In this document: positions 8,146 to 44,274 of the stretch, in pieces
Position numbering within the stretch: the stretch's first letter is position 1
How the letters are laid out: each line of letters starts with the position of its first letter
NCBI GenBank assembly: GCA_964493655.1
Contig: CAZBOY010000001.1
Coordinates: 1 to 58,772, forward strand
DNA from: Candidatus Woesearchaeota archaeon
GTDB lineage: Archaea > Nanobdellota > Nanobdellia > Pacearchaeales > GW2011-AR1
Length of the DNA: 58,772 nucleotides
Direction: 5' to 3'
Position numbers and translations under genes: made by a program
Notes under the pieces: generated by a model
Told to the model about the DNA's origin: nothing
Seen by the model: the letters and a program-made list of their open reading frames with translations, nothing else
Database searches by the model: none

Positions 8146-8250
8146 TAGGAGCTGACTAATTTAATCTTTATAGTGCCTGATGAAATTTTTCCATATCTTA
8201 AATAGGGTTGGGAAAAATTTCCGCAGAAGCTTCCTAAAGCATTATCACTA
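8146..8250 (+). repeat. nested-palindrome hairpin element, copy 1
   Basis: Stem 8182-8192 GAAATTTTTCC pairs with 8211-8221 GGAAAAATTTC; 18-nt loop starts ATATCTTA. Right flank is CGCAGAAGCTTCCTAAAGCATTATCAC. Confidence 0.75.
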
Positions 8251-8320
8251 AAACTACATCGAGTATTTTGCCAATTCATAAACCCTAATTTTTATTAATA
8301 ACTAACTTATCTTCAACTGG

Positions 8321-8425
8321 TTAGCTGACTGTTTTTTGTTGGTGGTTGTTGCGGAAATTTACCCTTATCTTATTTTTTGTTGGGGGTAAATTTCACCAGA
8401 GGTTTTGAAGAGCACTAAGCTTAAT
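8321..8425 (+). repeat. nested-palindrome hairpin element, copy 2 (in tandem with copy 1)
   Basis: Stem 8354-8364 GAAATTTACCC pairs with 8384-8394 GGGTAAATTTC; loop starts TTATCTTA. Flanks are TTAGCTGACTG...TTGGTGG and TTTTGAAGAGCACTAAGC. Confidence 0.75.
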
Positions 8426-8693
8426 ACTAACACAAAAAGATTTTTTAAATAATAAATCTCATAGAAAACTTTCCTTTAAACTTAGTCAGAAGGATTATTT
8501 ATTTATTCAGTTTTTGGTCTTTTGGAGGGATGTCTTTGGGAGAATCATTAACTTGTGCTGTGGGTTAATTGGGTTAATTCATCGAAATTTAGTAGTGCTA
8601 TAAATTTATATATGTAACTATTTCTAAATTAAAACAGAAAATGGAACTGACAAAGGAATTTATGATAAATAGTATTGAAAGGAGGTATAATAA

Positions 8694-9158
8694 ATGAGAA
8701 AAATTTTAGTTTTATTGATGACTCTTAGTATTTTAACTTTGATGTTTTCTTTATCTAATGTTATTGCCTTAAGCCAAGGTTTAAGTGTTACAATTAAGGA
8801 GGATTTAAATGTTGTAATCACTCCTACAAATGTTGAATTTGGAGAAGTAACTGCAGGAAGTATAGATAATCTTGCTAAGAACGGAAACATTATTATTGAC
8901 CCAACTGGAAGTAATGTTAAAACTATTTATGTTTATGTTTCTGTTGATGAAATAGAACCTTTTAAAACCGGGCTTAAGTTCGATGGAAGATTAGCAGATG
9001 GATTAAATTATGATTTGATATGCATAGAAAATCCATGGGAACACATTCCAAAAATTATTAAACCAACATTGGATGTTCCTTTAGGAGCATATGCAGGTAC
9101 AATATCTGGGGTAGTTACTTATACAATTACTGGAAGTTCGCCACCAGTTCATACATAA
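8694..9158 (+). CDS. small secreted beta-rich protein, paralog of the C-terminal domain of 1758..2822 (candidate fibre subunit)
   Basis: Strong SD (GGAGGT) 8 nt upstream, signal peptide, and the shared FGxVxAGSIDN...DPTGSN...GxVTYTITG motifs. Confidence 0.8.
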   Translation: MRKILVLLMTLSILTLMFSLSNVIALSQGLSVTIKEDLNVVITPTNVEFGEVTAGSIDNLAKNGNIIIDPTGSNVKTIYVYVSVDEIEPFKTGLKFDGRLADGLNYDLICIENPWEHIPKIIKPTLDVPLGAYAGTISGVVTYTITGSSPPVHT

Positions 9159-9159
9159 A

Positions 9160-9684
9160 ATGAAAACATTATTTTTTATTTTTTTAATTATAATGATGGT
9201 GGGGCTAGCTGGGGCTAGTGGATTCTCACCATCAAGTTTGGTTTTTAATCTTGGACCTAATCAAGAAGAATGCCAAATAATAACAATCACCTCTAATTCA
9301 CTGACGATAAATGTGGATGATAAATGGGCTACTAATAGTGATGTTGAATGGAAAGTAAGTTTGTTTAATTCAAGTGCAGAAGAACATAATCTAAATATTA
9401 ATTATGATAACTCCTTGGGGGAAGAGGAGAGAGAATTACAAGTTTGTCTTTCTGGTTCTGAATTAGGAGAATATCATGGAGTTATAATAATGAAAGAAGA
9501 ACAGCAGGGAAATTCTGTTGTGCAAATGGGGGTTTGGTTGAAGGTTGTGGTTGCAGAAAATATTGATAAAAATATTGATAAAACAATTATCTTGGGGGTG
9601 CTCTTTATTTTAATTATGATATCTTTTTTGTTTTTGATTAAAAAGAAAAGTAAGGGTGTAAGTTATTTCATCAAAACCCAGTAG
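9160..9684 (+). CDS. membrane-anchored beta-sandwich-like protein, paralog of 2824..3516
   Basis: Starts 1 nt after the upstream stop. A 62-bp run is identical to 2842-2903, and ~200 bp (9349-9548) is near-identical to 3013-3212. The C-terminal TM anchor differs. Confidence 0.8.
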   Translation: MKTLFFIFLIIMMVGLAGASGFSPSSLVFNLGPNQEECQIITITSNSLTINVDDKWATNSDVEWKVSLFNSSAEEHNLNINYDNSLGEEERELQVCLSGSELGEYHGVIIMKEEQQGNSVVQMGVWLKVVVAENIDKNIDKTIILGVLFILIMISFLFLIKKKSKGVSYFIKTQ

Positions 9685-9705
9685 TAAGACATGTTTATAT
9701 ATAGA
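9667..9705 (+). promoter_or_regulatory. shared promoter-proximal motif, copy 4, more diverged (TTCATCAAAACCCAGTAGTAAGACATGTTTATATATAGA)
   Basis: Overlaps the stop codon of 9160..9684. A GTAGTAAGA core plus a TATA-like box lie ~25 nt before ATG 9726. Confidence 0.45.
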
Positions 9706-9725
9706 AAACTTCTAAAAAAACCAGT

Positions 9726-12700
9726 ATGAAAAAGCAATTGGTATTTTTAATTTTAGGTTTGATTTTGATTAGTTCTGTTTCTGCTGCAGATGTTGCTTAT
9801 ATTTACAGAAGCTCTTCAATGGTTGACGACAATGTCTTAGATGTTTTTTCTGGTTTGCATTTAAGTGTTGATTTAATCAATGAAGATACTCTTCCAAAAG
9901 ATTTTTCAAATTATAAATTTCTTTTTATTGGAGATGAGAGTTTCAGAAATGAAGAAAACATTCCGGTGGATAAATATCCTTCAATTATTACAAGTTATTC
10001 TTTTGGAAAAGAGTTTGGTTTAACTGATGCTGATGGGGTTTCAAAACTTGCGGCTAATTCTCCTCTCCAAGTAAAAAAAGATAATCAGGCAATTCAGGTT
10101 TATACTCAAGCAAAATATAGTTTAGGAGGTATTGCAATTCCTTATTATTTTTTAGATGATCATAATAAAGCTCCTCAGATGCAATCTGTTGCAAGAACTT
10201 ATACTGGGATTAATCAAGAAAATGATTTCGGGGATGTAATTAGTTATGCTGGTCCAGGTGCAGATTTACTTAATGGAAATGAACTTGATAGTAAGCTGTG
10301 CTTTTTTGGAATAATTGAAAGTGACTACTGGACACCTGCTGCTCGTGAGTTGTTTGAAGATTGTGCTGGTTTTGTTGGAATAACTTGTGAGGGGGATAAT
10401 GATTGTCCTGATGATGAAGAGCTAGACAAATTCTGTAGAAATGATGATGTTTATGTTGAAGTTGAAAAATATGATTGTAAAAACGACGGGACTTTTAATT
10501 CTGAGTGTGTTTCTAATACAGATGATGAACTAGAAAAGAATTGTGATTACTTTTGTTATGATGCTGAATGTGTAAGGTGTAATTTTGATTACAATTGTGA
10601 CGACGGAAATATCCGGACTGAAGATAGTTGTGTAAATCCTAAGACAACACAGAGTTATTGTGAATATGGGGATATAACTTGTTTTAATGATAATGAATGC
10701 GACGATGAAAATAATTATACTAAAGATACTTGTTTAAGCCCTGGAACTGTGAACAGTGAATGTAAGCATGAAAACATAATTTGTTTTGAAAATGAAGATT
10801 GCAATGATGAAAATGATTATACAAAAGACCTATGTAGAAATCCCGGGACAGTTCAATCTCAATGTGAATATCAAGATATAGGTTGTCTTAATGATTTTGA
10901 TTGTGAAGATAATAATGAAAGAACTTTTGATGAGTGTGTAAACCCTGGAACTTCAATCAGCGAATGTAGAAATACTGAAATGAATTGTTTGAATGATGCA
11001 GATTGTGGGATTACCGGATTTGTTGGAGAAGAATTCTGCAACCATAATAATGTTTGGAAAACAAAACAAATTGCTCTTTGTCATAATCCTGCGACAATCT
11101 TGAGCTCTTGTGCTATTGCTGTTTATCCTGAATTAATCCAAGATTGCGATGATGGAGATATTTATACTATTGATAGTTGTGTAGAAGATGGAATTGCTCA
11201 TTGCGAGCATAAATTTTTAGAATGTTTAATAGATTCTGATTGCGACGAAGATTATTATACTAACTGGGAATTTTCTTGTGAACAGGACGATGTTATAAAA
11301 ACAAGAGAGCTTCATGATTTTTTCTGTTGTTTTGGTGAATGTTCTTTTTGTCAAGATCCTTGTGAAATAAATCAGAATACTTGTAAGGAATCAATAACTC
11401 CTGAAACAGAGTTTGTTGCTAATTGTGAATATGGATGTGATGATGGTGAATGTTTGCAAGGATGTTATGAAGATTCTGATTGTGGAGAGGTTCATTATGG
11501 GGAAAGATATTGTGAAGGAAGCAGTTCTATTTTAGAAGAATTCACACCAACTTGTACTGAAGGTGAATGTGGAGAAGAATTAAATCTTATTACTAATATT
11601 TGTTTGTATGGATGTGATGATGGAAAATGTAATGAGCCAGAATGTTCTGTTGCTGAAGATTGCGGGGATGTTGTTGAATCTCTTGAATGTGTTGGAGATG
11701 ATTTAGTTAAAACAATTACAACACCTATTTGTATTGAAGGTCTTTGTGGTGAAGAAACTTCTAATGAAACAACTTATTGTGAATATGGATGTGCAAATGA
11801 CGAATGTATAGAGCCTCCAATTGAATGTAATGCAAATCTAGATTGTGGATTAAATCAATTTTTAAATCAGGAATTTTGCCAGAACAATGATGTGTTTGAT
11901 AATTTTATAGTTTATAGTTGTGTAAATCCTGGACAAGTAAATAGTTATTGTGAAGAAGCGATTAATCCTCAATTAATTGAGGACTGCGGTGATGATTCTA
12001 ATGGTGAGTGGGGAAATTATTGTAAGGGTGATGATGTTTGGAGAACAAGAGATAATATAGATAAGGGATGTGTTTCTGGAGAATGCTTTTCAGAAACAGT
12101 TGTTGAAGATGAATTTCTTGTTGCTTGTGAATATGGATGTGATAATGGAAGTTGTATTGAAGGAACTCATGATGTTGCTTTAGTTGATTTTACTAATTCT
12201 GTTAATGGAATCGGTATTCAAGATTTAGGAGGAAATTATATTTTAGGAAATACTGCAACATTGAATTGCAATCAAGAATATAAAATATGGATTGATGTTG
12301 AGAACAAAGGAGATTTTGGAGAAGCAGTTGAATTTGAAAGTTTTGTTGATGGCTTGTTATTTAATCATCTTCAGGTTGATAATCTTCTTCCACAAGAGAA
12401 TAAATTAAAATATAGAACTGTTAATTTTTCATTAGAAGAAGGGGCTTATACAATCTCTGTTGAAGCTATTATAAACTCTGATGATAATTTAGAGAATAAT
12501 CTTGTTCAGAGAAATATAGAAATTGTTTGTGAAGAACCACCAATTGTATGTGAAAGAGATTCTGACTGTGGAACAAACCAATGGATTGGGGATGCACTTT
12601 GTTCAAATAATGATGTTAACCAAAACTTTAAAGTTTTCACATGTTTAAATCCTGGAACAATTAATTCTCAATGTGTTGATCAGGTTGATTTGATTTTAAA

Positions 12701-13223
12701 AAATGATTGCGGTGATGATTCTAATGGTGAATGGGAAAACTATTGTAAAGCAGATGATGTTTGGAGAACAAGAGATAATATAGATAAAGGATGTGTATCT
12801 GGAGATTGTTATTCTGAGGAATCTACTCAAGATGAATTTCTTGTTGCTTGTGAATATGGATGTGCAAATGACGAATGTATAGAGCCTCCAATTGAATGTA
12901 ATGCAAATCTAGATTGTGGATTAAATCAATTTTTAAATCAGGAATTTTGCCAGAACAATGATGTGTTTGATAATTTTATAGTTTATAGTTGTGTAAATCC
13001 TGGACAAGTAAATAGTTATTGTGAAGAAGCGATTAATCCTGAACTTATTGAGGATTGTGGTGATGATTCATTTGGAAATACTTATTGTATTGGAAAGGAT
13101 ATTTATCAAAATCAAACAGTAGTTAGTTGTGCTGATGCAAATTGTTTTAGTGAAATAAATCCTGTATTAGTTGGAAGTTGTGACTACAGATGTGCAAATG
13201 GGGGTTGCATAGCTTGTGTTTAA
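9726..13223 (+). CDS. giant secreted Cys-rich modular surface protein (1165 aa) with an internal CARDB-like domain
   Basis: Signal peptide and an N-domain paralogous to 7050..8114. Tandem 34-aa four-Cys modules (C-x5-C-x10-C-x9-C, e.g. CFNDNECDDENNYTKDTCLSPGTVNSECKHENII). Larger duplicated Cys-rich units. CARDB-like HDVALVDF...ENNLVQRNIEIVC. Confidence 0.85.
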   Translation: MKKQLVFLILGLILISSVSAADVAYIYRSSSMVDDNVLDVFSGLHLSVDLINEDTLPKDFSNYKFLFIGDESFRNEENIPVDKYPSIITSYSFGKEFGLTDADGVSKLAANSPLQVKKDNQAIQVYTQAKYSLGGIAIPYYFLDDHNKAPQMQSVARTYTGINQENDFGDVISYAGPGADLLNGNELDSKLCFFGIIESDYWTPAARELFEDCAGFVGITCEGDNDCPDDEELDKFCRNDDVYVEVEKYDCKNDGTFNSECVSNTDDELEKNCDYFCYDAECVRCNFDYNCDDGNIRTEDSCVNPKTTQSYCEYGDITCFNDNECDDENNYTKDTCLSPGTVNSECKHENIICFENEDCNDENDYTKDLCRNPGTVQSQCEYQDIGCLNDFDCEDNNERTFDECVNPGTSISECRNTEMNCLNDADCGITGFVGEEFCNHNNVWKTKQIALCHNPATILSSCAIAVYPELIQDCDDGDIYTIDSCVEDGIAHCEHKFLECLIDSDCDEDYYTNWEFSCEQDDVIKTRELHDFFCCFGECSFCQDPCEINQNTCKESITPETEFVANCEYGCDDGECLQGCYEDSDCGEVHYGERYCEGSSSILEEFTPTCTEGECGEELNLITNICLYGCDDGKCNEPECSVAEDCGDVVESLECVGDDLVKTITTPICIEGLCGEETSNETTYCEYGCANDECIEPPIECNANLDCGLNQFLNQEFCQNNDVFDNFIVYSCVNPGQVNSYCEEAINPQLIEDCGDDSNGEWGNYCKGDDVWRTRDNIDKGCVSGECFSETVVEDEFLVACEYGCDNGSCIEGTHDVALVDFTNSVNGIGIQDLGGNYILGNTATLNCNQEYKIWIDVENKGDFGEAVEFESFVDGLLFNHLQVDNLLPQENKLKYRTVNFSLEEGAYTISVEAIINSDDNLENNLVQRNIEIVCEEPPIVCERDSDCGTNQWIGDALCSNNDVNQNFKVFTCLNPGTINSQCVDQVDLILKNDCGDDSNGEWENYCKADDVWRTRDNIDKGCVSGDCYSEESTQDEFLVACEYGCANDECIEPPIECNANLDCGLNQFLNQEFCQNNDVFDNFIVYSCVNPGQVNSYCEEAINPELIEDCGDDSFGNTYCIGKDIYQNQTVVSCADANCFSEINPVLVGSCDYRCANGGCIACV
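11778..11969 (+). repeat. perfect 192-bp intragenic direct repeat, copy A
   Basis: Identical base for base to 12849-13040 when read by eye. Encodes CEYGCANDECIEPPIECNANLDCGLNQFLNQEFCQNNDVFDNFIVYSCVNPGQVNSYCEEAINP. Confidence 0.9.
12849..13040 (+). repeat. perfect 192-bp intragenic direct repeat, copy B
   Basis: Lies 1071 bp downstream of copy A. The neighbouring duplicated units are clearly more diverged (roughly one difference per 8-10 nt by eye). Confidence 0.9.
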
Positions 13224-13224
13224 G

Positions 13225-15985: not shown

Positions 15986-16015
15986 TTTTAAATTCTTAAG
16001 TTTATTATTCAAACT

Positions 16016-16752: not shown

Positions 16753-16866
16753 CCCCTGCAAAAATCCGTTCATTTCATTCATTCTCACATTTTTGCCCCG
16801 CCAAAAAAGTTTATAATCACTGATAACCCTTCGATGATTTATTGTGAGATTCATAAACTTCTCTGG
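16753..16866. repeat. second repeat family, locus 1 (segment X 16753-16797, segment Y 16820-16866)
   Basis: Y matches 20647-20694 in direct orientation. X matches 20698-20740 as its reverse complement. The listed ORF 16597..16854 is probably spurious. Confidence 0.7.
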
Positions 16867-20646: not shown

Positions 20647-20740
20647 CTGATAACTCATCGATGGATTTATTGTGAGATTCATAAATTTTCTTGGTGAGGC
20701 AAAAATGTGAGAGTGAATGAAATGAGCGGATTTTGCTGGG
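20647..20740. repeat. second repeat family, locus 2 (Y 20647-20694, inverted X 20698-20740)
   Basis: See locus 1. The same two segments are present, but X is on the other side of Y and inverted. Confidence 0.7.
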
Positions 20741-22340: not shown

Positions 22341-22438
22341 AGTTGGGCATTACTAAATTAATTTATTAATCTAACAAACATTTTTGGATGATATTTTCAT
22401 CAACGTTACCTTTCGAAGATTTTGTGAATTAATAAAAT

Positions 22439-23209
22439 TTAAGCTTCAGCTTTCCTATTCAACCGCCTCTCAATAAAAAACAAAATTCCCAGAGCCATAA
22501 CAGCTCCTACAAAAACAAGTGCGATGGGTGTTCTCTTTCCTGAGAAGAAAAACCCTTCTTTATCTGGGTCATTAACTCCTCCGATTATTCCTCCGCTAAG
22601 AAGTGATTCATCATAAGCCCCGACTACATTTCCTGTTCCAGTTAGATAGACTGCTTTTTTTGTAATTGTATTTTCCCCATCTGTAACCTTGATGTCGTAA
22701 TTTCCTTCTGGAGCAACAAGTTTTAATTCTTTGGTTTTTCCCACACCTAAGTTTATACTTTGGGGAGTTATGTCATCTCCGATAATTATCTGGATTTGTT
22801 TTTGATACGGTGTGTTTCCTTTGTTGATTATTACTAGTGTATCTTCTTTAATTTGAAATTCAACTTGTACATTTGCTTTTATAAAAAAAGGTCGTGATTC
22901 AATTGTTTTGTCTTTATATTCTGCTCTTACTTTCCACCCCCCAGATGCAAAATCATCTTCAATCAAAAGTGTGTTGTCTTCATTGGATGTAACTGTTTTT
23001 GTAATTTGTTTTCTATCTAGAGCATCTGAAAAATAAATTGTAACCTGGTCTGAAATCTGTTTTCCATCTTCTAAAAGTAAAACTCTATAAACAAGTTCGT
23101 CACCAGATGAATATTCTGGCTTGTCAAATTTTATATCTAAAGAGTATTCTGCTGAAACAAAAGAAATCGCGAGTAATACAAATACTAAACTTAACATCAG
23201 TTTTTCCAT
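22439..23209 (-). CDS. secreted, C-terminally membrane-anchored beta-rich protein
   Basis: Signal peptide, a C-terminal TM helix plus a basic tail, and no catalytic motif. Confidence 0.65.
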   Translation of the reverse strand: MEKLMLSLVFVLLAISFVSAEYSLDIKFDKPEYSSGDELVYRVLLLEDGKQISDQVTIYFSDALDRKQITKTVTSNEDNTLLIEDDFASGGWKVRAEYKDKTIESRPFFIKANVQVEFQIKEDTLVIINKGNTPYQKQIQIIIGDDITPQSINLGVGKTKELKLVAPEGNYDIKVTDGENTITKKAVYLTGTGNVVGAYDESLLSGGIIGGVNDPDKEGFFFSGKRTPIALVFVGAVMALGILFFIERRLNRKAEA

Positions 23210-27335: not shown

Positions 27336-27467
27336 ATCTTGAGAAGATAGAGGAAATATCACTAAATTTTAAATTATCGTTTAGTTGGAGTTATTGATTA
27401 GTTCTTCAAGGATGTTGTAGAAATTTAGGTACATTTTATTTGATTGGCTAAATTTCTGATTTTTATT

Positions 27468-27716
27468 TTATATTTTTGCTAGGTTTTCTAAATATCTTGG
27501 ATTGAAAGGCCCTGTTTGGTTTTCTATTTGTTGATTATAGAAAGAGAGATATTCTCTTTGCTTTCTTTTATTTTTTATGTATTTGCTAATGTGTCCTTTG
27601 GCAGATAATTCAAAAGCTTGTCTTAAACTTTCTTGGCAATTTTGAGGAACTGAGTTTGCAAGTCTTGTTAAATCGTCTTTTAGAAGTTGATCTCTGATTT
27701 CTTCTGTGGTTAACAT
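27468..27716 (-). CDS. hypothetical small protein
   Basis: 82-aa ORF. No motif recognised. Confidence 0.45.
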   Translation of the reverse strand: MLTTEEIRDQLLKDDLTRLANSVPQNCQESLRQAFELSAKGHISKYIKNKRKQREYLSFYNQQIENQTGPFNPRYLENLAKI

Positions 27717-27741: not shown

Positions 27742-28014
27742 TTAAGAATTTGTGTTGTTGAATTCTGAATGCCCAAACTGAATAAGCAAATCAGCGTCGG
27801 CATTGGGAATATCACAAGCTCCGAAACAGCTTCCAAGCCAAATTTTAATTTGTGCACTTGTGTTTTTTTCTAGGTGGTCTGCGATTTTAGTTGCGTAGGG
27901 CTTGAGCCCATCTGGGAATTGTAGAAGAACTTTTCCGGCTTTTGTTTTTTTAATTTCTTCTATGGCTTTTTCTAGTTCTAGATTGTATTTTTCTTGGAGT
28001 TCTTTAAGTTGCAT
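27742..28014 (-). pseudogene. dph2: N-terminal fragment (~90 aa) of diphthamide synthase Dph2
   Basis: AGKVLLQFPDGLKPYATKIADHLEK...GSCFGACDIPNADADLLIQFGHSEF matches the Dph2 N-terminal domain. The ORF stops after ~90 of the expected ~330 aa, and the downstream ORF is unrelated. Confidence 0.6.
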
Positions 28015-30560: not shown

Positions 30561-30730
30561 AAAAAACTAATAAAATCTGTATATATAAGCATTATTGTAA
30601 TTAATAACAACAATAATGATGTGGAATTCACAAATGAGTGATTATGAAAAAGTTATTTTTTCAATCTTAAACCATGAATAGATAAAAATTTATTAATTAT
30701 AAAATTGCTAATAGAATTATAGAACATAGA

Positions 30731-30822
30731 TTATTTATCTTGGCGGCTTTCGCGGAAATTTATCCCGAGTATTTTAAGATAAGGATAAATTTCTTCAGGA
30801 GTTTTGCAGAGCAGTAGCATAA
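30731..30822 (+). repeat. nested-palindrome hairpin element, copy 3
   Basis: TTATTTATCTTGGC GGCTTTCGCG, then stem 30755-30765 GAAATTTATCC pairing with 30783-30793 GGATAAATTTC, then TTCAGGAG TTTTGCAGAGCAGTAGCATAA. The loop ends TAAGATAA. Confidence 0.8.
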
Positions 30823-30866
30823 ATCTCATTTAAAGATTTTTATTAGAGTAATAAAGGATATATATT

Positions 30867-31212
30867 TTATAATTCCCCTAATCTTCTTTTTAATTCATTT
30901 ACATCATTACAATTATAATAAATTTCTTCTGCTACCTTAACTGCATCTATCCAAGGGATTAATTCCTTAGCTCGAAGATTACGGATAGCATAGTCAATCA
31001 TCCCATATTTTAAACCATTTCTTTGATTGATTCCTTCCTTCCTTATATAAGGGGTGTAATGGATTTCTGCGATGGGCATAAATTGGCTCAAAAGTTTCTT
31101 CATCAAAACCCATAAAAATTACTGGTAATTCTTCCCATTCTTGAATCCGCATAATAAATTCTCTAGAAAGAGCTCTTAGCTTTTCTTCAAACCAAATTTG
31201 TTGTTCGACCAT
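30867..31212 (-). pseudogene. two overlapping ORFs (72 and 79 aa): either a frameshifted single gene or an overlapping pair; function unknown
   Basis: ORF 30994..31212 and ORF 30867..31106 overlap by 113 nt in different frames. The tail of the first (YAHRRNPLHPLYKEGRNQSKKWFKIWDD) looks less protein-like than the alternative frame. Confidence 0.35.
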
Positions 31213-31242
31213 TTATTCTAACAGAAATGATATATAAAAACA

Positions 31243-31557
31243 TTATCGTGATGGTTTTCCAATTCTGCTTTTTCTTCTTTTAACAGCCAAGGGATTTGCT
31301 TCTGCACTATTCACCTGACTGTATAAATCAAGATAATCACATTCAAGTTCTCCCCTAACACATTTATATTCAAAAGTAGAAACAATTATATTTTTATCCC
31401 CTAATCTTCGGCATACACGTTTTTCAACTAATTTTATCCCTTTAAATGGCCCTGGATATTTTTGGCAAACGCAATTACATTTTTTTACACGACCAATATC
31501 TTCACTTCCAACTTCACCTACATCTTAGAAGTCTTCTAATCTATGATTATCATCCAT
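31243..31557 (-). pseudogene. Cys-rich small ORF (104 codons) with an in-frame TAA at codon 11
   Basis: ATG at 31557-31555 and TAA at 31527-31525. The same frame then stays open for 93 codons (DVGEVGSEDIGRVKKCNCVCQKYPGP...KRRKSRIGKPSR) to TAA 31245-31243, with no in-frame ATG/GTG/TTG near its 5' end. Confidence 0.4.
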
Positions 31558-31651
31558 GCCCTTTTATTAAGTTTTGATTTAAAAGCTTTATTGTGGTGGA
31601 TTATTTAATCATTCAGAAAAGGTTTAAAAACCCAAGTTCAAATTAATAATT

Positions 31652-32092
31652 ATGGCATTTAAAATTAATGTGTCTCATGAAGGAAAGACTGCGAAGTTTG
31701 AAAATGAAAATGAAGAGTTAATTGGAAAATTAATTGGTGATAAAATTGAGGGGGATTTGATTGATGCTTCCTTGAAGGGTTATGAACTTGAGATTACTGG
31801 GACAAGTGACAAGGCAGGGTTTCCTGGATTTGCTGACGAGATTGGTACTGGTTTAAAGAGGGTTTTGCTTACTTATGGTAAAGGGCTTCATGTAAGGCCA
31901 AAAGGGGATAGAAAAAAATCAGACAAGCCAAAAGGATTGAGGTATCGAAAAACTGTAAGAGGTCAAGAAATTTCAGAAGCAACTATTCAGATTAATACTA
32001 AGGTTATAAAAGAAGGTGGGAAGAAATTTGTAGAATTGTTGCCTAAGAAAGAAGAAGTTGAGACTGAAAAATCTGAAGAGAAAAAAGAATAA
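31652..32092 (+). CDS. rps6e: ribosomal protein eS6 (S6e)
   Basis: MAFKINVSHEGKT...GYELEITGTSDKAGFPG...GLRYRKTVRG is typical of S6e. Confidence 0.9.
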   Translation: MAFKINVSHEGKTAKFENENEELIGKLIGDKIEGDLIDASLKGYELEITGTSDKAGFPGFADEIGTGLKRVLLTYGKGLHVRPKGDRKKSDKPKGLRYRKTVRGQEISEATIQINTKVIKEGGKKFVELLPKKEEVETEKSEEKKE

Positions 32093-32592: not shown

Positions 32593-32660
32593 AATTTATT
32601 TCTTGTGATGACTATAAAAAAATTTAAATTTATTAATCTAATAAATCATCGCTTTGGGGG

Positions 32661-32758
32661 AATAGGTTATTTATCTTGGTGGCTTTTACGGAAATTTATC
32701 CTTGTCTATAACATACTTGGGATAAATTTCTTCAGAAGTTTTGCAGAGCATTATCATA
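32661..32758 (+). repeat. nested-palindrome hairpin element, copy 4
   Basis: GGTTATTTATCTTGGT GGCTTTTACG, then stem 32691-32701 GAAATTTATCC pairing with 32720-32730 GGATAAATTTC, then TTCAGAAG TTTTGCAGAGCATTATCATA. The listed ORF 32605..32787 across it is probably spurious. Confidence 0.8.
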
Positions 32759-32851
32759 GCCTTAATACAAAAGATTTGTTTGATTAATAAATTGAGAAAA
32801 ATTAAAACCCACAAACTTAAAAACTAATAATTCTAATTATAAAAGAAGAAG

Positions 32852-33472: not shown

Positions 33473-33529
33473 TTTTTGATTCTCTGACTAAAGTTAATTT
33501 ATTAATTAAATTACTTCTAAAATTGTGAG

Positions 33530-33629
33530 AAGTCTATTACTTCCCTTGGTAACTTTTGAAGAAATTTAGCACAATAATTTTTTTAAGATGGTGCTAAATT
33601 TCCGCAAAGGATTTTTAGAGCAGTAAAGG
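33530..33629 (+). repeat. nested-palindrome hairpin element, copy 5
   Basis: CCCTTGGT AACTTTTGAA, then stem 33561-33572 GAAATTTAGCAC pairing with 33591-33602 GTGCTAAATTTC, then CGCAAAGGA TTTTTAGAGCAGTAAAGG. The loop ends TAAGATG. Confidence 0.75.
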
Positions 33630-33743
33630 TAAAGCTCATCTCAAGAATTTTTGTCAATTAATAAATTTGAGAATTTATACCCAATAAATCAAAATTCAAC
33701 AAACATCCACAAACCTTTAAAACCCCCCCGCATTCTAATTTTC

Positions 33744-34952
33744 ATGGAAGAAAAAATAGACATCTCTAAAATTGAGACATTAAATGTTGGGATAGTCGGG
33801 CATATTGACCATGGAAAGACAACCTTGCTTTACAAACTTAGCGGGAAATGGGCTGATACACATTCTGAAGAATTGAAAAGGGGGATTACAATTAAACTTG
33901 GTTATGCAGATGTTATAATTAGAGATGAAGATGGGAATTTGACTACTGATAAAAAAAGTAAAGGCAAACCTATCCGTTACATAACTTTTGTAGATGCTCC
34001 TGGACACGAGATGCTTATGGCAACAATGCTTTCTGGTTCTGCAATTATGGATGCTGCGATTTTAGTTATTGCTGCAGACGAAGGGATAAAACCCCAGACA
34101 AAAGAACATCTAATTGCTCTCCAGGCTAAGAAAATTAAAAATATAATAATTGTCCAGAATAAAATTGATTTGGTTTCTAAAGAAGATGCTCTAAAAAATT
34201 ACCAAAAAATTAAAGAGTTTGTAAAGGGAACTATTGCAGAAAATTCTCTGATAATTCCTGTTTCTGCTCAGCAAAATATTAATATTGACAAAGTATTGGA
34301 AGAACTCTGTAAAATTAAAATTGAAAAAAAGGATTTGGAAAAAAAACCTCTTTTCCTTATTGCGAGAAGTTTTGATATTAACAAACCTGGGACTGATCTT
34401 AATAATTTGCATGGGGGGGTTTTGGGGGGGGCTTTAAAACAAGGAAGTTTAAAAATCGGAGATGAAATTGAAATCAAGCCAGGTTATTCTTATAAAAAAC
34501 AAAATAAGTTTTATTATCACCCAGTTAAATCCAAAATTGTTTCAATGCAAAAAGGAGAGTATCCAATTGAAGTTGCAACCCCTGGAGGAAGCCTAGCAAT
34601 TGAGACAGAGTTAGACACAAGTTTGACAAGGGCAGATTCTTTGTCTGGTTGTGCTGTGTCCTATGTTGGAGAACTCCCAGAAATAAGTGAGGAAACTAAA
34701 ATTAAATTTGATTTATTTGGAGAAGTCTTGGGAACTGCCGGGCACGAGGCTGTTGCAGAGTTGAAGACAAATGAAATGCTGATGCTAAGTATAAACACCA
34801 CAATAACTGTTGGGCAGGTGAAAAAAATAAAAGATAAAGAGGTAGAATTATCTTTGAAAATTCCTATTGTGCCTTTGAAGGGGACTGGTGTTGGAATTGC
34901 GAGAAATATCAAGGGGCACTGGCGGTTGATTGGTTTTGGGGAGATTATTTAA
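33744..34952 (+). CDS. eif2g: translation initiation factor aIF2 gamma subunit
   Basis: MEEKIDISKIETLNVGIVGHIDHGKTTL, DAPGHE, NKID. I prefer ATG 33744 over the listed TTG 33651, whose extension overlaps intergenic repeat sequence. Confidence 0.9.
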   Translation: MEEKIDISKIETLNVGIVGHIDHGKTTLLYKLSGKWADTHSEELKRGITIKLGYADVIIRDEDGNLTTDKKSKGKPIRYITFVDAPGHEMLMATMLSGSAIMDAAILVIAADEGIKPQTKEHLIALQAKKIKNIIIVQNKIDLVSKEDALKNYQKIKEFVKGTIAENSLIIPVSAQQNINIDKVLEELCKIKIEKKDLEKKPLFLIARSFDINKPGTDLNNLHGGVLGGALKQGSLKIGDEIEIKPGYSYKKQNKFYYHPVKSKIVSMQKGEYPIEVATPGGSLAIETELDTSLTRADSLSGCAVSYVGELPEISEETKIKFDLFGEVLGTAGHEAVAELKTNEMLMLSINTTITVGQVKKIKDKEVELSLKIPIVPLKGTGVGIARNIKGHWRLIGFGEII

Positions 34953-35007
34953 ATTATAAAGTGACTACAAACAAAAGATTTATAAATAATGATTTATCTT
35001 AATTCTT

Positions 35008-35814
35008 ATGGAAATTAAATTAAATGTTGTCGAACCAAATCTGATTGTTAGTGGAGATGGAATCTATTTGGGTTTGGATGGAAAAGATATTGTTCCTGTT
35101 GGTTTAGATGTTGATTGGATTGTTATGAATCATATCGGAGAATTAAAAGTAAGCAAAGGTGATTTGGAAACTATTGGTGGAGGAAAGGGTAAACAAAATG
35201 GGGAATTTGATACACCATTAAATGAATATTTACAGGAATTTAAAGCAAGATTTAATTCAGATTTTTGTTTTAGTATTACAGATGACTCCACAAGATTATT
35301 TGGATTAAGCTATGTTGTTAATGCTGCGACTCATGAATTACCTTGGGAGGCTTTTTTTTGGAAGGAACTTGCAGGAATTATAGCCAATCCTGATGGGTTT
35401 AATAGAAATTGTGATAATAACGAAAAGAAGTTGAAATATATTAGGATAGACAGAAAACGGACTTTTGAAGAGATAAAAAAATTACATGATGAATTAGAGC
35501 CTAAAACTCCTGATAATTTTGCAGGAATTAGTATTCTTCCAGGGCGATTTCCTTATGATGATAAAACTTTAGTAGTAAAATATTTAGCTCATGTAACTTT
35601 GGGTCAATTAAAAGCAAAAGACAGAACACAATTAGAATTAGCAAAATCTAAATTAGTGGAAAAATTAAAAAAAGTTAAAGGTCCTGCACTTTCTCTTGAT
35701 GCTCCTTGTCTTCAGCAGCAGATTTGGAGATTATACTTTGATGCTCCAAGATTAGTCAGGGATTATGGAGATGTTTTAAATTCTTTTCCAAGATTTTTTA
35801 AATTAGACCCCTGA
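35008..35814 (+). CDS. hypothetical protein
   Basis: 268-aa ORF with no motif recognised, followed by hairpin copy 6. Confidence 0.6.
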   Translation: MEIKLNVVEPNLIVSGDGIYLGLDGKDIVPVGLDVDWIVMNHIGELKVSKGDLETIGGGKGKQNGEFDTPLNEYLQEFKARFNSDFCFSITDDSTRLFGLSYVVNAATHELPWEAFFWKELAGIIANPDGFNRNCDNNEKKLKYIRIDRKRTFEEIKKLHDELEPKTPDNFAGISILPGRFPYDDKTLVVKYLAHVTLGQLKAKDRTQLELAKSKLVEKLKKVKGPALSLDAPCLQQQIWRLYFDAPRLVRDYGDVLNSFPRFFKLDP

Positions 35815-35851
35815 TTATTTTTATTAATCCCAAAACTATTCATCGACTTAT

Positions 35852-35950
35852 GAGCTGACTGATTTGTCTTGGCAACTCTTGAAGAAACCCAAACTTATCT
35901 TATATGATTGTTTGGATTTCCACAAAACCTTTTCAGAGCATTATGATAAA
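35852..35950 (+). repeat. nested-palindrome hairpin element, copy 6
   Basis: GAGCTGACTGATTTGTCTTGGC AACTCTTGAA, then stem 35884-35894 GAAACCCAAAC pairing with 35910-35920 GTTTGGATTTC (one C.A mismatch), then CACAAAACC TTTTCAGAGCATTATGATAAA. The loop starts TTATCTTA. Confidence 0.75.
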
Positions 35951-36043
35951 CACTCCACAAAAAGGTTTATTAATTAATAATTTAATTTTTATTATCTAGA
36001 TTATTTTCAAAACATATTTATACCTTAAAAACAACAGAATAAT

Positions 36044-36484
36044 ATGGAAAAGGTGGTGAAACAAAAAATACCAGAAGCAAATGCCGAGGGAGCTATCCCG
36101 AAAATATTAATCCCGAGTGGAAAATTGATTTCTGAAATTTTTGGGATAATCTTTATTATAGTTTTGTTGTGGAGCATCCTTGGGGGAAACAATTGGGAGC
36201 TGACTACTTCAAATCTTTCAATAGAAATTGGATGGCCGTGGTCTTTTCTTTATCTTGAAGAGAGTTATGATGGTGGACTTCCGATAAACATATTAAATTT
36301 AATTTTGGACATGCTTGTTTATCTTGTGGCTTCGTATATAATTGCAGTGGTGTTTACAGTTATTTGGGATTCATTTAGAGGACCTCCAAAACCAATTTCA
36401 GAGCAAGATAAAAAAACTATGAATAATTTGAGGAAGTTAGCGGGGGGGGGGAAATTAATTATTAATCCTAAAAAATTCTCTTAG
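36044..36484 (+). CDS. small membrane protein, unknown function
   Basis: 146 aa with 2-3 hydrophobic helices. Bracketed by hairpin copies 6 and 7. Confidence 0.6.
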   Translation: MEKVVKQKIPEANAEGAIPKILIPSGKLISEIFGIIFIIVLLWSILGGNNWELTTSNLSIEIGWPWSFLYLEESYDGGLPINILNLILDMLVYLVASYIIAVVFTVIWDSFRGPPKPISEQDKKTMNNLRKLAGGGKLIINPKKFS

Positions 36485-36488
36485 GAGA

Positions 36489-36579
36489 TTTATGCTTAAT
36501 GCTCTGAAAAGCTTTTGTGGAAATTTATCCTTACTTTAATATACTTGAGATAAATTTCTTCAGAAATTGCCAAGGTTAC
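36489..36579 (-). repeat. nested-palindrome hairpin element, copy 7 (outer flanks inverted on the + strand)
   Basis: TTATGCTTAATGCTCTGAAAA GCTTTTGTG, then stem 36519-36528 GAAATTTATC pairing with 36548-36557 GATAAATTTC, then TTCAGAAA TTGCCAAGG. Lies between the convergent 3' ends of 36044..36484 and gyrA. Confidence 0.8.
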
Positions 36580-36632
36580 AATCATCAACCCCAAATATTA
36601 AAAATTTAAATTTACGAATATGTTGTCTTCTG

Positions 36633-39978: not shown

Positions 39979-39979
39979 C

Positions 39980-42647: not shown

Positions 42648-42687
42648 AATAGATAAATTTTATAAATGGTATTAAAATAAATTTCTG

Positions 42688-43194
42688 ATGGAAGAAAGTA
42701 TTAAGGAGTATAAATATGGTGGGAGATTATTTGGAAGATTAATTAGGGGGGATTCTGGAGATACACATTTTGAACCTTGTATTGAAGAATTTGAACTTTT
42801 TGATCTTATAAGAGAAATGAATGTTAGCGATCAGGTCCATATGGAAAGGAAAGCTTTTGCTGTTTTTAGATTGCTAAAACATTATGGACATAACCCTAAG
42901 GATTGTCTTGAGAATGAATCTATTTTAATTCACCTTGCTAATCTTGGACATACAAGCCGTTTTAAGTTGCAAAGACAGGATACAACAGCTTATGATTTGG
43001 TCACTCAAAGGGGCTTACTCAAAGGAAGATATAAACATAGATTAAGTAGTAAAACACTAAGATTACCCAAACCCCAAAGAGTTAGTTTTGAAGAAGAAAG
43101 GGAAGAATATGGTTGGACTGCTTCTAGGGTAGTTCAAAAAATTTTAGCTGAAAGAACTGTGAGGGGTCGGGGGCGAAGATTTAATTCTAGATGA
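42688..43194 (+). CDS. hypothetical protein with an Arg-rich C-terminus
   Basis: 168-aa ORF. No motif recognised. Confidence 0.55.
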   Translation: MEESIKEYKYGGRLFGRLIRGDSGDTHFEPCIEEFELFDLIREMNVSDQVHMERKAFAVFRLLKHYGHNPKDCLENESILIHLANLGHTSRFKLQRQDTTAYDLVTQRGLLKGRYKHRLSSKTLRLPKPQRVSFEEEREEYGWTASRVVQKILAERTVRGRGRRFNSR

Positions 43195-43210
43195 TATTTT
43201 ATTAGGACTC

Positions 43211-43393
43211 TTACTCTTTTTTATCAACCTTATTAACTTTCTGAACCCACTTCACTTTCTTATTGTTACGTCCCATTTCTTGGTTTTTTCTGCATTTAGA
43301 TGAACAAAAATAAAATGGTGTTCCTTCTTTTTGGACTACAGTTACTCCTTTGGGGAATTTATACTCTTGTTTACAAAATATGCATTTGGGCAT
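43211..43393 (-). CDS. rpl24e: ribosomal protein eL24 (L24e)
   Basis: MPKCIFCKQEYKFPKGVTVVQKEGTPFYFCSSKCRKN zinc-ribbon signature. Confidence 0.9.
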   Translation of the reverse strand: MPKCIFCKQEYKFPKGVTVVQKEGTPFYFCSSKCRKNQEMGRNNKKVKWVQKVNKVDKKE

Positions 43394-43701
43394 TAGCTAA
43401 AAACCCCCTTGGAAATTTTTGTTCTTAATCTTCGCGCCTCAATTTCTGTTTCTCTTAACATTAAAACATCTCTTTTTCTTACAGGCCCTCGAACATTTCT
43501 TCTCATTTGTTTTCCTTGATTTCTTCCCTTTAATACTCGGCATTTTACTTGAGTCAACTCTCCACGAGTTCCTGTTCTCCCGGCTATAAATTCTACAACT
43601 GCTGGAACTGCACCTTCTTCTGTTAATTTTTCAGAACCTTTTGAAGAACCTTTGGAAGCAGAATTTGATTTTTGCTCTTTAATTTTTTGTGTTTTTGCCA
43701 T
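43393..43701 (-). CDS. rps28e: ribosomal protein eS28 (S28e) with a Lys/Ser-rich N-terminal extension
   Basis: AVPAVVEFIAGRTGTRGELTQVKCRVL...GPVRKRDVLMLRETEIEARRL core. About 30 extra N-terminal residues. Confidence 0.9.
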   Translation of the reverse strand: MAKTQKIKEQKSNSASKGSSKGSEKLTEEGAVPAVVEFIAGRTGTRGELTQVKCRVLKGRNQGKQMRRNVRGPVRKRDVLMLRETEIEARRLRTKISKGVFS

Positions 43702-43717
43702 GTAAGTTTAAAAATAA

Positions 43718-44014
43718 TTATTTAATTGAATCTAATTTAGCTTCCCCTAATTCGATAATTGCAATTGCACTGCACTTGACATTTATTCCTGCGACGATTC
43801 CTAATTTTTCTTTAGAATCTGCTTCAACAAATTTGATGTTTTTTTCTTTGCATAAAAGGGGGATGTGTTGAGTTAGTTCTTTTGGTTCAATATCTGCAGC
43901 TACAACAACAAGTTTTGCAACTCCTCGCTCAATTGCTTTTGTAACTTCGTTTATACCTTTGTCAATTTTCCCTGTCTTTGCTGCTTTTTCAACAACATCA
44001 TATATTGTAATCAT
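43718..44014 (-). CDS. rpl7ae: ribosomal protein L7Ae (short form, 98 aa)
   Basis: GINEVTKAIERGVAKLVVVAADIEPKELTQHIPLLCKEKNIKF. Conserved L7Ae-S28e-L24e gene order. Confidence 0.9.
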   Translation of the reverse strand: MITIYDVVEKAAKTGKIDKGINEVTKAIERGVAKLVVVAADIEPKELTQHIPLLCKEKNIKFVEADSKEKLGIVAGINVKCSAIAIIELGEAKLDSIK

Positions 44015-44173
44015 TTTGTTTGTTAACCAATAGAACTAATCCTCCCTATTGGTCATTGGATAGTTAAGAAATAATAATTGGGTTTAAAAAGCTTTTGTTA
44101 TAATCTAAACAAACAAAAAACTAGCTTAAGGTTAATTTAAAATTTATTAATTGACAAAGACTCTTTGTGGGCG

Positions 44174-44274
44174 TTTATCATAATGCTCTGCAAAGCTTCT
44201 GCGGAAATTCTTCTAAATCTAAAATATGATGCGGAAGAATTTCTTCAAGTGTTGCCAAGATAAATAACTCCTAT
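44174..44274 (-). repeat. nested-palindrome hairpin element, copy 8 (outer flanks inverted on the + strand)
   Basis: TTTATCATAATGCTCTGCAAA GCTTCTGCG, then stem 44204-44213 GAAATTCTTC pairing with 44234-44243 GAAGAATTTC, then TTCAAGTG TTGCCAAGATAAATAACTCCTAT. Confidence 0.8.

Follow-up and report, generated by a model that had tools for sequence, protein, structure and literature searches.

Nested palindromic layers in mirror-image states in an intergenic hairpin repeat of a small DPANN archaeon

The inverted terminal repeats of parvoviruses and the telomeres of poxviruses occur in flip and flop forms, which arise at the ends of linear replicons in every round of replication and coexist at a ratio of about 1:1. 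Hairpins can also be inverted elsewhere. Plastid hairpins undergo recurrent small inversions (PMC6824564), and 'flip-flop' changes of this type in non-coding plastid DNA were described by Kelchner and Wendel 1996, as cited there. Template switching inverts hairpin loops in place; Monttinen and Loytynoja 2022 (PMC8794818) reported template-switch mutations in rRNA and miRNA hairpins, mostly in loops of 4-8 nt. Bacterial chromosomes contain MITE-like foldback repeats (Correia/NEMIS, ERIC, RU; reviewed in PMC3184786) and REP/REPIN elements (PMC3116915). Here we describe a previously undescribed intergenic hairpin repeat of about 165 bp from a small DPANN archaeon, which resembles each of these systems in part.

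The window analysed is the whole of a stretch of 58,772 nt, contig CAZBOY010000001.1 of assembly GCA_964493655.1 (Candidatus Woesearchaeota archaeon; Nanobdellota; Pacearchaeales; GW2011-AR1). The eight copies listed in an initial annotation are all present at the positions given there, and a covariance model built from those eight found only those eight in the window. Scores are 87-102 bits in the orientation of the flanks, against 32-53 bits for the other strand, which makes the orientation of each copy unambiguous. The unit is symmetric, 162-168 bp long, and larger than initially annotated. It consists of an end of the TTTATTAAT type, a poorly conserved linker of ~49 nt, flank A (TTATTTATCTTGGC), which is conserved and asymmetric, a mid layer with imperfect pairing, an upper stem of 10-12 bp beginning with GAAAT, and a loop of 15-20 nt; the mirror half follows, carrying flank B (TTTGCAGAGCATTATGATAAAC) and the end in reverse complement. 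The mid layer occurs in two states, I and II. In loop a, TATCTTA lies at the 5' side; in loop b, its complement lies at the 3' side. The copies and related features are:

Copy 8146: 8119..8282, plus strand; left end TTTATTAAT 8119-8127, right end ATTCATAAA 8274-8282; 5' mid layer 8168-8181; stem 8182-8192 / 8211-8221; loop 8193-8210; 3' mid layer 8222-8235; State II on the 3' arm (CCGCAGAAGC) only, 5' arm diverged; loop a.
Copy 8321: 8291..8456, plus strand, in tandem with copy 8146; left end 8291-8299, right end 8448-8456; 5' mid layer 8340-8353; stem 8354-8364 / 8384-8394; loop 8365-8383; 3' mid layer 8395-8408; State I-like (GCGG / CACC; five G.U and no A/C pairs); loop a.
Copy 30731: 30689..30855, plus strand; left end 30689-30697, right end 30847-30855; 5' mid layer 30741-30754; stem 30755-30765 / 30783-30793; loop 30766-30782; 3' mid layer 30794-30807; State I; loop b, the reverse complement of the loop of copy 32661.
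Copy 32661: 32629..32791, plus strand; left end 32629-32637, right end 32783-32791; 5' mid layer 32677-32690; stem 32691-32701 / 32720-32730; loop 32702-32719; 3' mid layer 32731-32744; State I; loop a; ends form the 12-nt perfect inverted repeat AATTTATTAATC (17/21 on extension).
Copy 33530: 33498..33665, plus strand; left end 33498-33506, right end 33657-33665; 5' mid layer 33547-33560; stem 33561-33572 / 33591-33602; loop 33573-33590; 3' mid layer 33603-33616; State II by sequence (GAAG / CCGC), strand asymmetry neutralised; loop b probable, not significant.
Copy 35852: 35820..35981, plus strand; left end 35820-35828, right end 35973-35981; 5' mid layer 35870-35883; stem 35884-35894 / 35910-35920; loop 35895-35909; 3' mid layer 35921-35934; State II; loop a.
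Copy 36489: 36458..36618, flanks on the minus strand, between a convergent 146-aa gene and gyrA; right end 36458-36466; 5' mid layer 36559-36572; stem 36549-36558 / 36520-36529; loop 36530-36548; 3' mid layer 36506-36519; State II; loop b.
Copy 44174: 44143..44306, flanks on the minus strand, upstream of L7Ae; ends 44298-44306 and 44143-44151; 5' mid layer 44244-44257; stem 44234-44243 / 44204-44213; loop 44214-44233; 3' mid layer 44190-44203; State II; loop orientation ambiguous.
Degenerate ninth copy: 27380..27470, plus strand; stem 27419-27457, GAAATTTAG / CTAAATTTC; no recognisable flanks.
Element-type end pair: 22359..22440, no strand assigned; TTTATTAATCTAACAAAC and GAATTAATAAA, 66 nt apart, lacking the central hairpin.

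The element is AT-rich, and each copy is bordered on both sides by chromosomal genes (S6e, aIF2-gamma, L7Ae, gyrA and others), with flanks co-directional with both neighbours in 9/9 co-directional gene pairs. TTTATTAAT occurs 19 times against 6.1 expected. The two end sequences covary between species A and species B: this genome has ATTTATTAAT, and in species B both ends read (G)TTTAGTAAT. In copy 33530, as in copy 32661, the ends form a 12-nt perfect inverted repeat. The mid layer lies 46-52 nt from one end and 47-49 nt from the other, and the spacing between left motif and core is fixed even though the linker sequence is not conserved. Runs of T follow flank B. In a comparison of 17 copies, 98.9% of the cells in the upper helix are paired, with double compensatory changes at 7/11 pairs; the mid layer is only 59.4% paired.

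The proposal that the inner layers are inverted relative to fixed outer flanks is borne out by identity matrices, the internal loop, the reversal of wobble pairs and tests on the loops. Copies 30731 and 32661 and, less cleanly, 8321 are in State I; copies 33530, 35852, 36489 and 44174 (the last two read on the minus strand) served as the State II set. Over the 11+11 nt of mid layer adjoining the upper stem, the two states share 10-12/22 positions in direct register, and copies 30731 and 32661 match State II at 14-16/22 positions in inverted register. Inverted identity within one class is only 4-12/22, and the relation between the classes therefore exceeds simple palindromy. The 2x2 internal loop, 5'CG/3'TT in State I, is 5'AA/3'CG in State II, which is the exact reverse complement and includes a transversion. 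On the flank strand, State I copies have 2-6 non-Watson-Crick pairs of the G.U type and 0-1 of the A/C type, whereas copies 35852, 36489 and 44174 have 0-1 and three, respectively. The G.U wobbles of one state are the A/C mismatches of the other, and the more stable RNA strand switches with state (by 2-11 kcal/mol in State I and 5-9 kcal/mol the opposite way in State II). The assignment of copy 8146 to State II holds for its 3' arm, but not for the diverged 5' arm. Copy 44174 differs hardly at all in its flanks from copies 30731 and 32661, both of State I.

The loops show the same relation. TATCTTA is found on the 5' side in copies 8146, 8321 and 35852, and the loop of copy 32661 has this orientation by alignment; the complement is found on the 3' side in copy 30731, which copy 36489 matches by alignment. 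Between the two groups, the reverse-complement score minus the direct score is 4.0, compared with -0.5 +/- 0.7 for shuffled loops (0/1000). The loops of copies 30731 and 32661 alone have 13 inverted and 8 direct matches, which was reached in 4/5000 shuffles. Loop orientation is statistically ambiguous in copies 33530 and 44174; the complement orientation initially given for copy 33530 is probable. Loop and mid layer assort independently, as had been suggested, and all four combinations are found, with copies 32661 (State I, loop a), 30731 (State I, loop b), 36489 (State II, loop b) and 35852 (State II, loop a) as robust representatives. One module, made up of a TTTATCC stem and a loop that ends in ATACTYG, occurs in three of the combinations. 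The layers form a mosaic, in that flanks, mid layer, stem and loop group the copies incongruently.

The strongest evidence for inversion comes from the locus that separates the 146-aa gene from gyrA, where a state switch between orthologous loci, as envisaged in the initial annotation, was found. By the covariance model, this genome and its relatives L220 and L221 all have minus-strand flanks here, and the flanks and flanking DNA of this genome and its closest relative, L220, align directly. The inner 55 nt of copy 36489 and of L220:761-858 (both minus strand) match at 45/55 positions in inverted and 38/55 in direct register. The loop contributes 13 inverted and 8 direct matches (23/5000 shuffles), and the mid layer 17/22 and 14/22; as the mid layer has few asymmetric positions, the loop weighs most. 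The locus is in State I in the relatives and in State II in this genome. L221 has a different stem and loop module here, indicating that modules move between copies. At the locus of copy 35852, State II is retained in this genome, L220 and L221, so that State II arose or was acquired at least twice. The L220 ortholog of this copy (L220:132-226) has the same states and matches at 78/84 (93%) of the shared core positions; identity is 84% and 77% for the adjoining genes and 57-72% for the linkers. The core is thus more conserved than the genes beside it. Between L221:593-687 and L220:132-226 the loops are exact reverse complements (15/15), and three species share the identical loop TTATTTTATATGATT.

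We favour, with a probability of about 0.6, a MITE/REP-like foldback repeat that is probably transcribed and whose palindromic layers have been inverted by nested small events, the states being fixed alleles. Because the inner part is nearly palindromic, a short exchange between the arms would swap a segment for its own reverse complement and leave the flanks unaffected. Such an exchange might occur through a template switch in replication, by recombination across the stem, or by gene conversion with another copy, paired in inverted register, as the donor; in-place inversion and inverted-register conversion by another copy fit the data alike. Switch points inside the upper stem would flip the loop alone, and switch points in the outer GCAAC/GTTGC pairs would flip mid layer, stem and loop jointly. 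Several such events, nested, independent, rare and fixed, could produce the four combinations. The boundaries agree with this scheme: the 10-12-bp upper stem encloses the loop flips, and GCAAC and GTTGC, which adjoin flanks A and B on the inside, enclose the larger flip. Segments replaced in place by their reverse complement between unchanged flanks, a bounding inverted repeat, and recurrent states at odds with phylogeny are features of small inversions, and all three are seen here. Template switching, which the initial annotation had invoked, and recombination across the stem are documented routes to such inversions (PMC8794818; PMC6824564). As far as the plastid changes are summarised in PMC6824564, they likewise replace a loop bounded by inverted repeats with its reverse complement, repeatedly, independently of phylogeny and with no dedicated enzyme; the archaeal hairpin differs in being a multi-copy chromosomal repeat that flips at two nested levels (loop; mid layer, stem and loop). 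The larger flip is visible because the mid layer is imperfect and G.U-rich. In the rRNA and miRNA hairpins of PMC8794818, an inter-strand switch within the stem similarly inverts the loop and may alter several stem positions together. Here the inverted segments are 15-55 nt long, and the same mechanism is proposed for them.

That States I and II are two diverged subfamilies, with no physical inversion, is highly improbable. A GC-rich perfect palindrome would have decayed under AT pressure while pairing was selected on opposite strands. The arm differences are indeed mostly transitions (G.U versus A/C), as if C-to-T changes were tolerated on one strand, and the window taken alone, with three copies against five, is compatible with this. 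However, the idea is largely refuted by the exactly reverse-complementary internal loop with its transversion, by unpaired loops that have no palindromic ancestor and yet are reverse complements (15/15 in one case), by the incongruent groupings from flanks, mid layer, stem and loop, and by the switch at an orthologous locus with collinear flanks. We also consider it improbable that the hairpin is an actively invertible module with both isomers in the population, flipped by cruciform formation, replication or an enzyme, such that switching alters which strand encodes the stable G.U-paired RNA hairpin. If it were, toggling at appreciable frequency, driven by replication or cruciforms, would decide which neighbouring gene's transcript is terminated or stabilised. 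All four combinations exist, the more stable strand does change with state, and the genes on either side of the one documented locus-level switch are convergent, with transcription of both strands there. In other assemblies, contig ends also cluster at the elements (7/25 ends, four at copy 35852), which could be a trace of mixed orientations in the population; contig breaks at hairpins are, however, trivially explicable. The initial annotation had proposed looking for both isomers at individual loci, and we find no support for their coexistence: 20 consensus contigs from other assemblies of the same strain (at least nine samples; 99.5-100% identical) show one and the same state at 6/6 covered elements. 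State II at the locus of copy 35852 is stable over three species, and mismatches created by inversion have been partly repaired by further substitutions (copies 33530 and 8146 are neutralised), which argues that the inversions are old and fixed. Pfam matches to a recombinase, invertase, transposase or HUH protein were absent from the 55 of 66 listed ORFs of at least 80 aa scanned in the 58.8-kb window, and the nearby site-specific recombinase typical of invertons was not among these ORFs. Nor is the analogy with hairpin termini supported. The archaeal element is likewise an imperfect palindrome in two mutually reverse-complement forms, but its copies are internal, with genes on both sides and one fixed state each, and none is at the end of a linear replicon. 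Judging from these consensus sequences, the states behave as fixed alleles from rare evolutionary events and not as products of ongoing isomerisation.

A different possibility, which we regard as unlikely though worth weighing, is that the units are genes for a family of structured small RNAs of ~125 nt. The left TTTATTAAT would be a TATA box, with transcription starting ~16 nt before CTTGG and terminating at the T-run that precedes the right end; the RNA would fold into the long hairpin and a second, small hairpin around AGAGCATTATGATAAAC. Stem-mediated inversion would account for the flips here as well, and they would be tolerated since nothing but the helix matters. Consistent with this are the fixed distance of the left motif from the core across a non-conserved linker, the T-runs after flank B, the orientation bias with transcription, the strongly covarying upper stem and the conservation of the core above the adjoining genes. 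The left motif in L220, AAAAGATTTATAAATAA, resembles a canonical promoter and is like the promoter upstream of a 268-aa gene, CAAAAGATTTATAAATAA; in addition, 8/8 State I copies of species A and B have many flank-strand G.U pairs. Against it, a gathering-threshold Rfam scan returned tRNA-Asp only and no element match, E-value scans of the element regions gave chance-level matches only (E > 2), with no family match even at E < 5, and conserved C/D boxes, a k-turn or an ACA box were not seen by inspection. State II places A/C mismatches on the supposed RNA strand and yet is kept in three species. Conservation of the loop in both orientations is not explained by a one-strand RNA, a TATA box alone does not predict the same motif inverted at the far end and covarying between species, and close relatives whose spacers are compact lack the units. 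Under the foldback-repeat reading, too, the units are probably transcribed as structured RNA, given a core that is conserved and oriented with transcription.

The distribution of the element points to this foldback-repeat reading. Matches are confined to four related Pacearchaeota-type genomes, and a further 160 Pacearchaeota loci gave none, nor did viral contigs. Corresponding sites in relatives are compact spacers of 35-55 nt without it; species B, L218, L219 and L222 have 32-101-nt spacers at the positions of copies 32661 and 33530 and lack both. Conversely, copies occur in species B at sites empty in this genome, and the insertions are thus polymorphic. Since units appear to have been inserted or duplicated into such short spacers, the repeat is best read as a lineage-specific, MITE/REP-like foldback family, its mobility being suggested by presence and absence between genomes. 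It has the terminal inverted repeats and small uniform size of a MITE, and shares with the bacterial foldback repeats a length of ~100-170 bp, intergenic location, multiple copies, inverted-repeat ends, a long hairpin, and presence or absence among related genomes. Unlike in those repeats, no cognate transposase or RAYT was found in the window, and no target-site duplication: inspection showed no direct repeat beside the ends, where a 2-3-bp duplication would be unrecognisable because the copies are old and the DNA AT-rich. The 20-40-bp GC-rich palindrome and GTAG/CGTC tag of REP/REPIN elements are also lacking, and no protein of the Y1/HUH type was found in the window. The host differs as well, being a DPANN archaeon, and the copies are 60-80% identical to one another, with no near-identical pair in the window. 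The core is constrained above its neighbour genes; together with the loop TTATTTTATATGATT kept in three species, this is more as expected of a functional element than of a parasite in decay. Finally, the degenerate copy at 27380..27470 is the positional ortholog of a species-B copy at L175:4007, and the end pair at 22359..22440 is possibly an internally deleted copy.

All eight copies of the element, named here by window position, are intergenic and lie where the initial annotation placed them. A covariance model made from the eight copies and then run on the window matched exactly those eight, with scores of 87-102 bits in one orientation, compared with 32-53 bits in the opposite one. Because the flanks are asymmetric (TTATTTATCTTGGC on the 5' side, TTTGCAGAGCATTATGATAAAC on the 3' side), the orientation of a copy is unambiguous: plus in six copies, minus in 36489 and 44174. 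With the flanks aligned, the layers follow in the order 5' mid layer, upper stem, loop, 3' stem arm and 3' mid layer. The upper stem has 10-12 bp, beginning with GAAA and ending with TTTC in every copy, and the loop has 15-20 nt. The mid layer has two mirror states relative to the flanks, State I (GGCTTTYRCGG ... CTTCAGRAGTT) and State II (AACWYTTGAAG ... CCRCARAAGCT), and the loop carries either TATCTTA at its 5' side (loop a) or the complement of this motif at its 3' side (loop b).

Element copies and related features in the window
8146 (+): State II on the 3' arm only; loop a
8321 (+): State I, less cleanly; loop a
30731 (+): State I; loop b
32661 (+): State I; loop a orientation, by alignment
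33530 (+): State II; loop orientation ambiguous
35852 (+): State II; loop a
36489 (-): State II; loop b, by alignment
44174 (-): State II; loop orientation ambiguous
27380-27470: degenerate ninth copy (stem 27419-27457), flanks not recognisable, collinear with copy L175:4007 of the sister species
22359-22440: two element-type ends in inverted orientation (TTTATTAATCTAACAAAC ... GAATTAATAAA), 66 nt apart, without a hairpin between them; possibly a copy with an internal deletion
Element ends: ATTTATTAAT or TTTAGTAAT

A pair of inverted TTTATTAAT-type motifs encloses every copy, 46-52 nt ahead of the 5' mid layer and 47-49 nt past the 3' mid layer, so that the unit measures 162-168 bp including its ends. 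The window has 19 occurrences of this motif (6.1 expected), ten of them at elements. In 32661 and 33530 the ends form a perfect inverted repeat of 12 nt. In the sister species (species B; the host of the window is species A) both ends are (G)TTTAGTAAT instead, and the end sequences thus covary. The linkers between ends and core are constant in length and poorly conserved in sequence. Taken over 17 copies, pairing is 98.9% in the upper helix, with double compensatory changes in 7 of 11 pairs, and only 59.4% in the mid layer. A single-stranded DNA foldback of the whole unit via its paired ends was rejected, as it forms for 32661, not for 33530 or 44174.

The proposal that the inner layers are inverted relative to fixed flanks is borne out by direct comparison. 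Copies 30731 and 32661 match State II copies at 14-16 of 22 mid-layer positions when inverted, versus 10-12 of 22 when aligned directly; within one state class the inverted identity is 4-12 of 22. This is more than plain palindromy, since a plain palindromic stem would match its inverted form about as well within a class as between classes. Next to the upper stem lies a 2x2 internal loop, which reads 5'CG/3'TT in State I copies and 5'AA/3'CG in those of State II. The two are exact reverse complements, and because the relation includes a transversion, wobble tolerance cannot account for it. Among non-canonical pairs on the flank strand, 2-6 are of the G.U type and 0-1 of the A/C type in State I copies, all five from the sister species included; in 35852, 36489 and 44174 the numbers are 0-1 and 3, respectively. 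The more stable RNA fold is formed by the flank strand in State I (by 2-11 kcal/mol) and by the opposite strand in 35852, 36489 and 44174 (by 5-9 kcal/mol). Although their sequence is of State II, 33530 and 8146 have lost the strand asymmetry.

The loop follows its own course. Most sister-species copies have TATCTTA at the loop 5' side, and the remaining ones align in the same orientation. Between the two loop groups, the reverse-complement minus direct score is 4.0, versus -0.5 +/- 0.7 for shuffled loops (0/1000). The loops of 30731 and 32661 have 13 inverted and 8 direct matches (4/5000 shuffles), as do those of 36489 and its ortholog (23/5000 shuffles). That loop and inner-segment states occur in different combinations therefore holds, with all four robustly represented: State I with loop a (32661), State I with loop b (30731), State II with loop b (36489) and State II with loop a (35852). 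Copies 32661, 30731 and 36489 have one stem and loop module in common, with stem TTTATCC and a loop that ends in ATACTYG, and carry it in three state combinations. The flanks of 44174, a State II copy, hardly differ from those of 30731 and 32661, which are State I. The layers are mosaic among copies.

The initial annotation had suggested looking for state switches at orthologous loci of related genomes, and one was found. Species B, whose aIF2-gamma is 82% identical, is represented by GCA_964635935.1 and by contigs that co-occur in the same samples; at least five copies are present in it, each in State I with loop a. Two closer relatives, species C and D, were found via a 146-aa protein (83% identity in the species C contig L220, 72% in the species D contig L221); their genomes are those represented by k141_377806 and k141_331545 of ERZ27247124. 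Copy 35852 has the same states in its L220 ortholog, and in L221 the 3' half of this copy is present, also in State II. The spacer that follows separates the 146-aa gene from gyrA. Here the model sets the flanks on the minus strand in the window, L220 and L221 alike, and the flanking DNA aligns directly; the mid layer is State II in the window versus State I in L220 and L221. The inner 55 nt of this locus match between the window and L220 at 45 positions when inverted and at 38 when direct. As 35852 is shared in State II and the following spacer differs, State II has arisen or been acquired at least twice. At the 146-aa/gyrA locus L221 has a different stem and loop module, its loop being the exact reverse complement (15/15) of the loop at L220:132-226, which indicates that inner modules move between copies. 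A C/A mismatch in the upper stem of 35852 was considered as an inversion scar and rejected; the L220 ortholog reads T-A there, so the mismatch is a point mutation. The 146-aa ORF of the window (36044-36484) has a G10 homopolymer at its 3' end (36442-36451), identical in five other assemblies covering it, and continues into the right end of element 36489; L220 and L221 read GGGGAGGAGATAGCTTAA at this position and have an earlier stop.

Exact-protein look-up retrieved 20 contigs of the strain that come from other assemblies and samples; they cover six of the eight elements, and their identity to the window is 99.5-100%. Samples containing the strain are SRR8437246, SRR8437277, the runs underlying ERZ27248897, ERZ27248922, ERZ27248936, ERZ27248954 and ERZ27248965, and JGI 3300005645, 3300028167 and 3300028169. 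Coexisting isomers did not appear: these 20 sequences, which are consensus sequences and not reads, show no difference inside any of the six covered elements, and there is thus no locus-level heterogeneity at the consensus level. Contig ends of the other same-strain assemblies fall at elements in 7 of 25 cases, compared with ~11% of the regional sequence; four are at 35852.

Contig ends in or adjoining elements
35789-35960
32623
33636
36650

Such clustering may stem from read-level heterogeneity, the population then containing both orientations, or it may have the simpler cause that hairpins are poorly covered. Contig L179 ends within the 35852 stem; it was rejected as a third strain because its assembly is a chimera that joins species A with species B.

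We conclude that nested segments of a near-palindrome have been physically inverted to give the mirror states, for which short exchanges between the hairpin arms are the best explanation. Inter-strand template switching, which has been shown to invert hairpin loops in place (PMC8794818), may be responsible, as may recombination across the stem, the process behind the recurrent 'flip-flop' small inversions at plastid hairpins (PMC6824564). The inversions here are nested, and the hairpins belong to an archaeal element. The palindromic inner part would also allow another copy to pair in inverted register and act as a gene-conversion donor. The data fit all three routes, and no known mechanism is overturned. 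The events look old and fixed, because transitions later repaired several inversion-made mismatches, three species have State II in common at one locus, and independent assemblies agree. The likeness to flip/flop isomers of hairpin termini does not apply. The element provides a clean prokaryotic example of nested hairpin inversion, in which an imperfect, wobble-rich stem reveals which layers turned. Such flips produce clusters of apparent substitutions, and they can break assemblies and mislead alignments and repeat classification.

The element is a new MITE/REP-like foldback repeat, probably transcribed; an sRNA gene is a serious rival reading. In co-directional gene pairs the flank orientation agrees with both neighbours in 9/9 cases, and T-runs follow the hairpin on the flank strand. 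Rfam at the gathering threshold matched only a tRNA-Asp over the window and nothing at the hairpin element, and a Pfam scan of 55 window ORFs found no recombinase, transposase or HUH protein. C/D-box and H/ACA sRNAs, a k-turn/L7Ae site and a bulge-helix-bulge were rejected: by inspection their defining boxes are merely sporadic (TGATGA in 8146 and 36489, ACA in five of eight copies), and Rfam gave none. Orc1/Cdc6 origin-recognition boxes, which the element superficially resembles (TTTCCGC, ACACTTGAA), were rejected because eight copies dispersed over 36 kb are unlike an origin, and a small peptide in the 3' flank because its ATG is present in some copies only. Between the window and L220, the core of 35852 matches at 78 of 84 shared positions (78/87 counting three overhanging end bases), versus 84% and 77% identity in the adjacent genes and 57-72% in the linkers. 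Because conservation is higher in the core than in the adjoining genes, the element probably has a function, for example that of an RNA hairpin, of a terminator/promoter cassette or of a protein-binding site.

Covariance models R1 and R3 matched the family in species A-D only. No copy was found in 160 other Pacearchaeota-type loci from metagenome and genome scans with aIF2-gamma; the one weak match, in L034, lies inside coding sequence and was rejected, and 36 exact 17-mer matches in viral contigs are all due to chance, none fitting the model. In relatives the same gene pairs are 32-101 nt apart and hold merely the promoter CACAAAnn-TTTAAAAACCC ~30 nt before the ATG. Only two sites are occupied in both species A and B, one upstream of S6e and the other the degenerate copy at 27419, whose collinearity with L175:4007 places its occupation before the A/B split. 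As the relatives' spacers are compact and the occupied sites mostly unshared, units entered or were lost from spacers after the lineages split. The non-coding DNA of DPANN archaea is almost unexplored, and the family adds an undescribed structured intergenic repeat to it. Between 30731 and S6e, ~0.8 kb (30860-31560) is absent from species B; two overlapping minus-strand ORFs there (30994-31212 and 30867-31106) look like one frameshifted gene and have no Pfam match.

The window is a complete 58,772-bp contig of an AT-rich archaeon, with genes for S6e, aIF2-gamma, aIF5B, L7Ae, S28e and gyrase. The nearest public relatives of its aIF2-gamma are from MAGs labelled Woesearchaeota, Pacearchaeota or Nanoarchaeota, making the host a DPANN archaeon. 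Window-wide, CACAAAnn-TTTAAAAACCC (or TTATAAATA) is conserved ~30 nt before the ATG of protein genes (for example at 31619-31654, 33713-33746 and 34968-35010), which suggests mostly leaderless transcripts and a very uniform BRE/TATA promoter. A 90-aa ORF at 27742-28014 (-) matches positions 1-60 alone of the 302-position diphthamide synthase profile PF01866 which makes it an apparent gene fragment; species B has a similar called fragment of 89 aa (L177:2091-2360). The 1165-aa ORF at 9726-13223 (+), without a Pfam match, has internally repeated cysteine-rich modules (repeat families D1, D3, D5, D8, D9, D13, D15, D17 and D18), and its neighbours at 7050-8114 and 1758-2822 have other repeats in common. 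A 54-nt inverted repeat, 89% complementary (16761-16814 and 20681-20734), surrounds a 3.9-kb segment with a peptidase U32 gene, tRNA-Asp and a 392-aa ORF. An ORF at 47983-48366 encodes a phage-type metallopeptidase, and at 5955-6984 a nucleotidyltransferase with an N-terminal wHTH adjoins a HEPN-domain ORF, the arrangement of an MNT/HEPN toxin-antitoxin pair.
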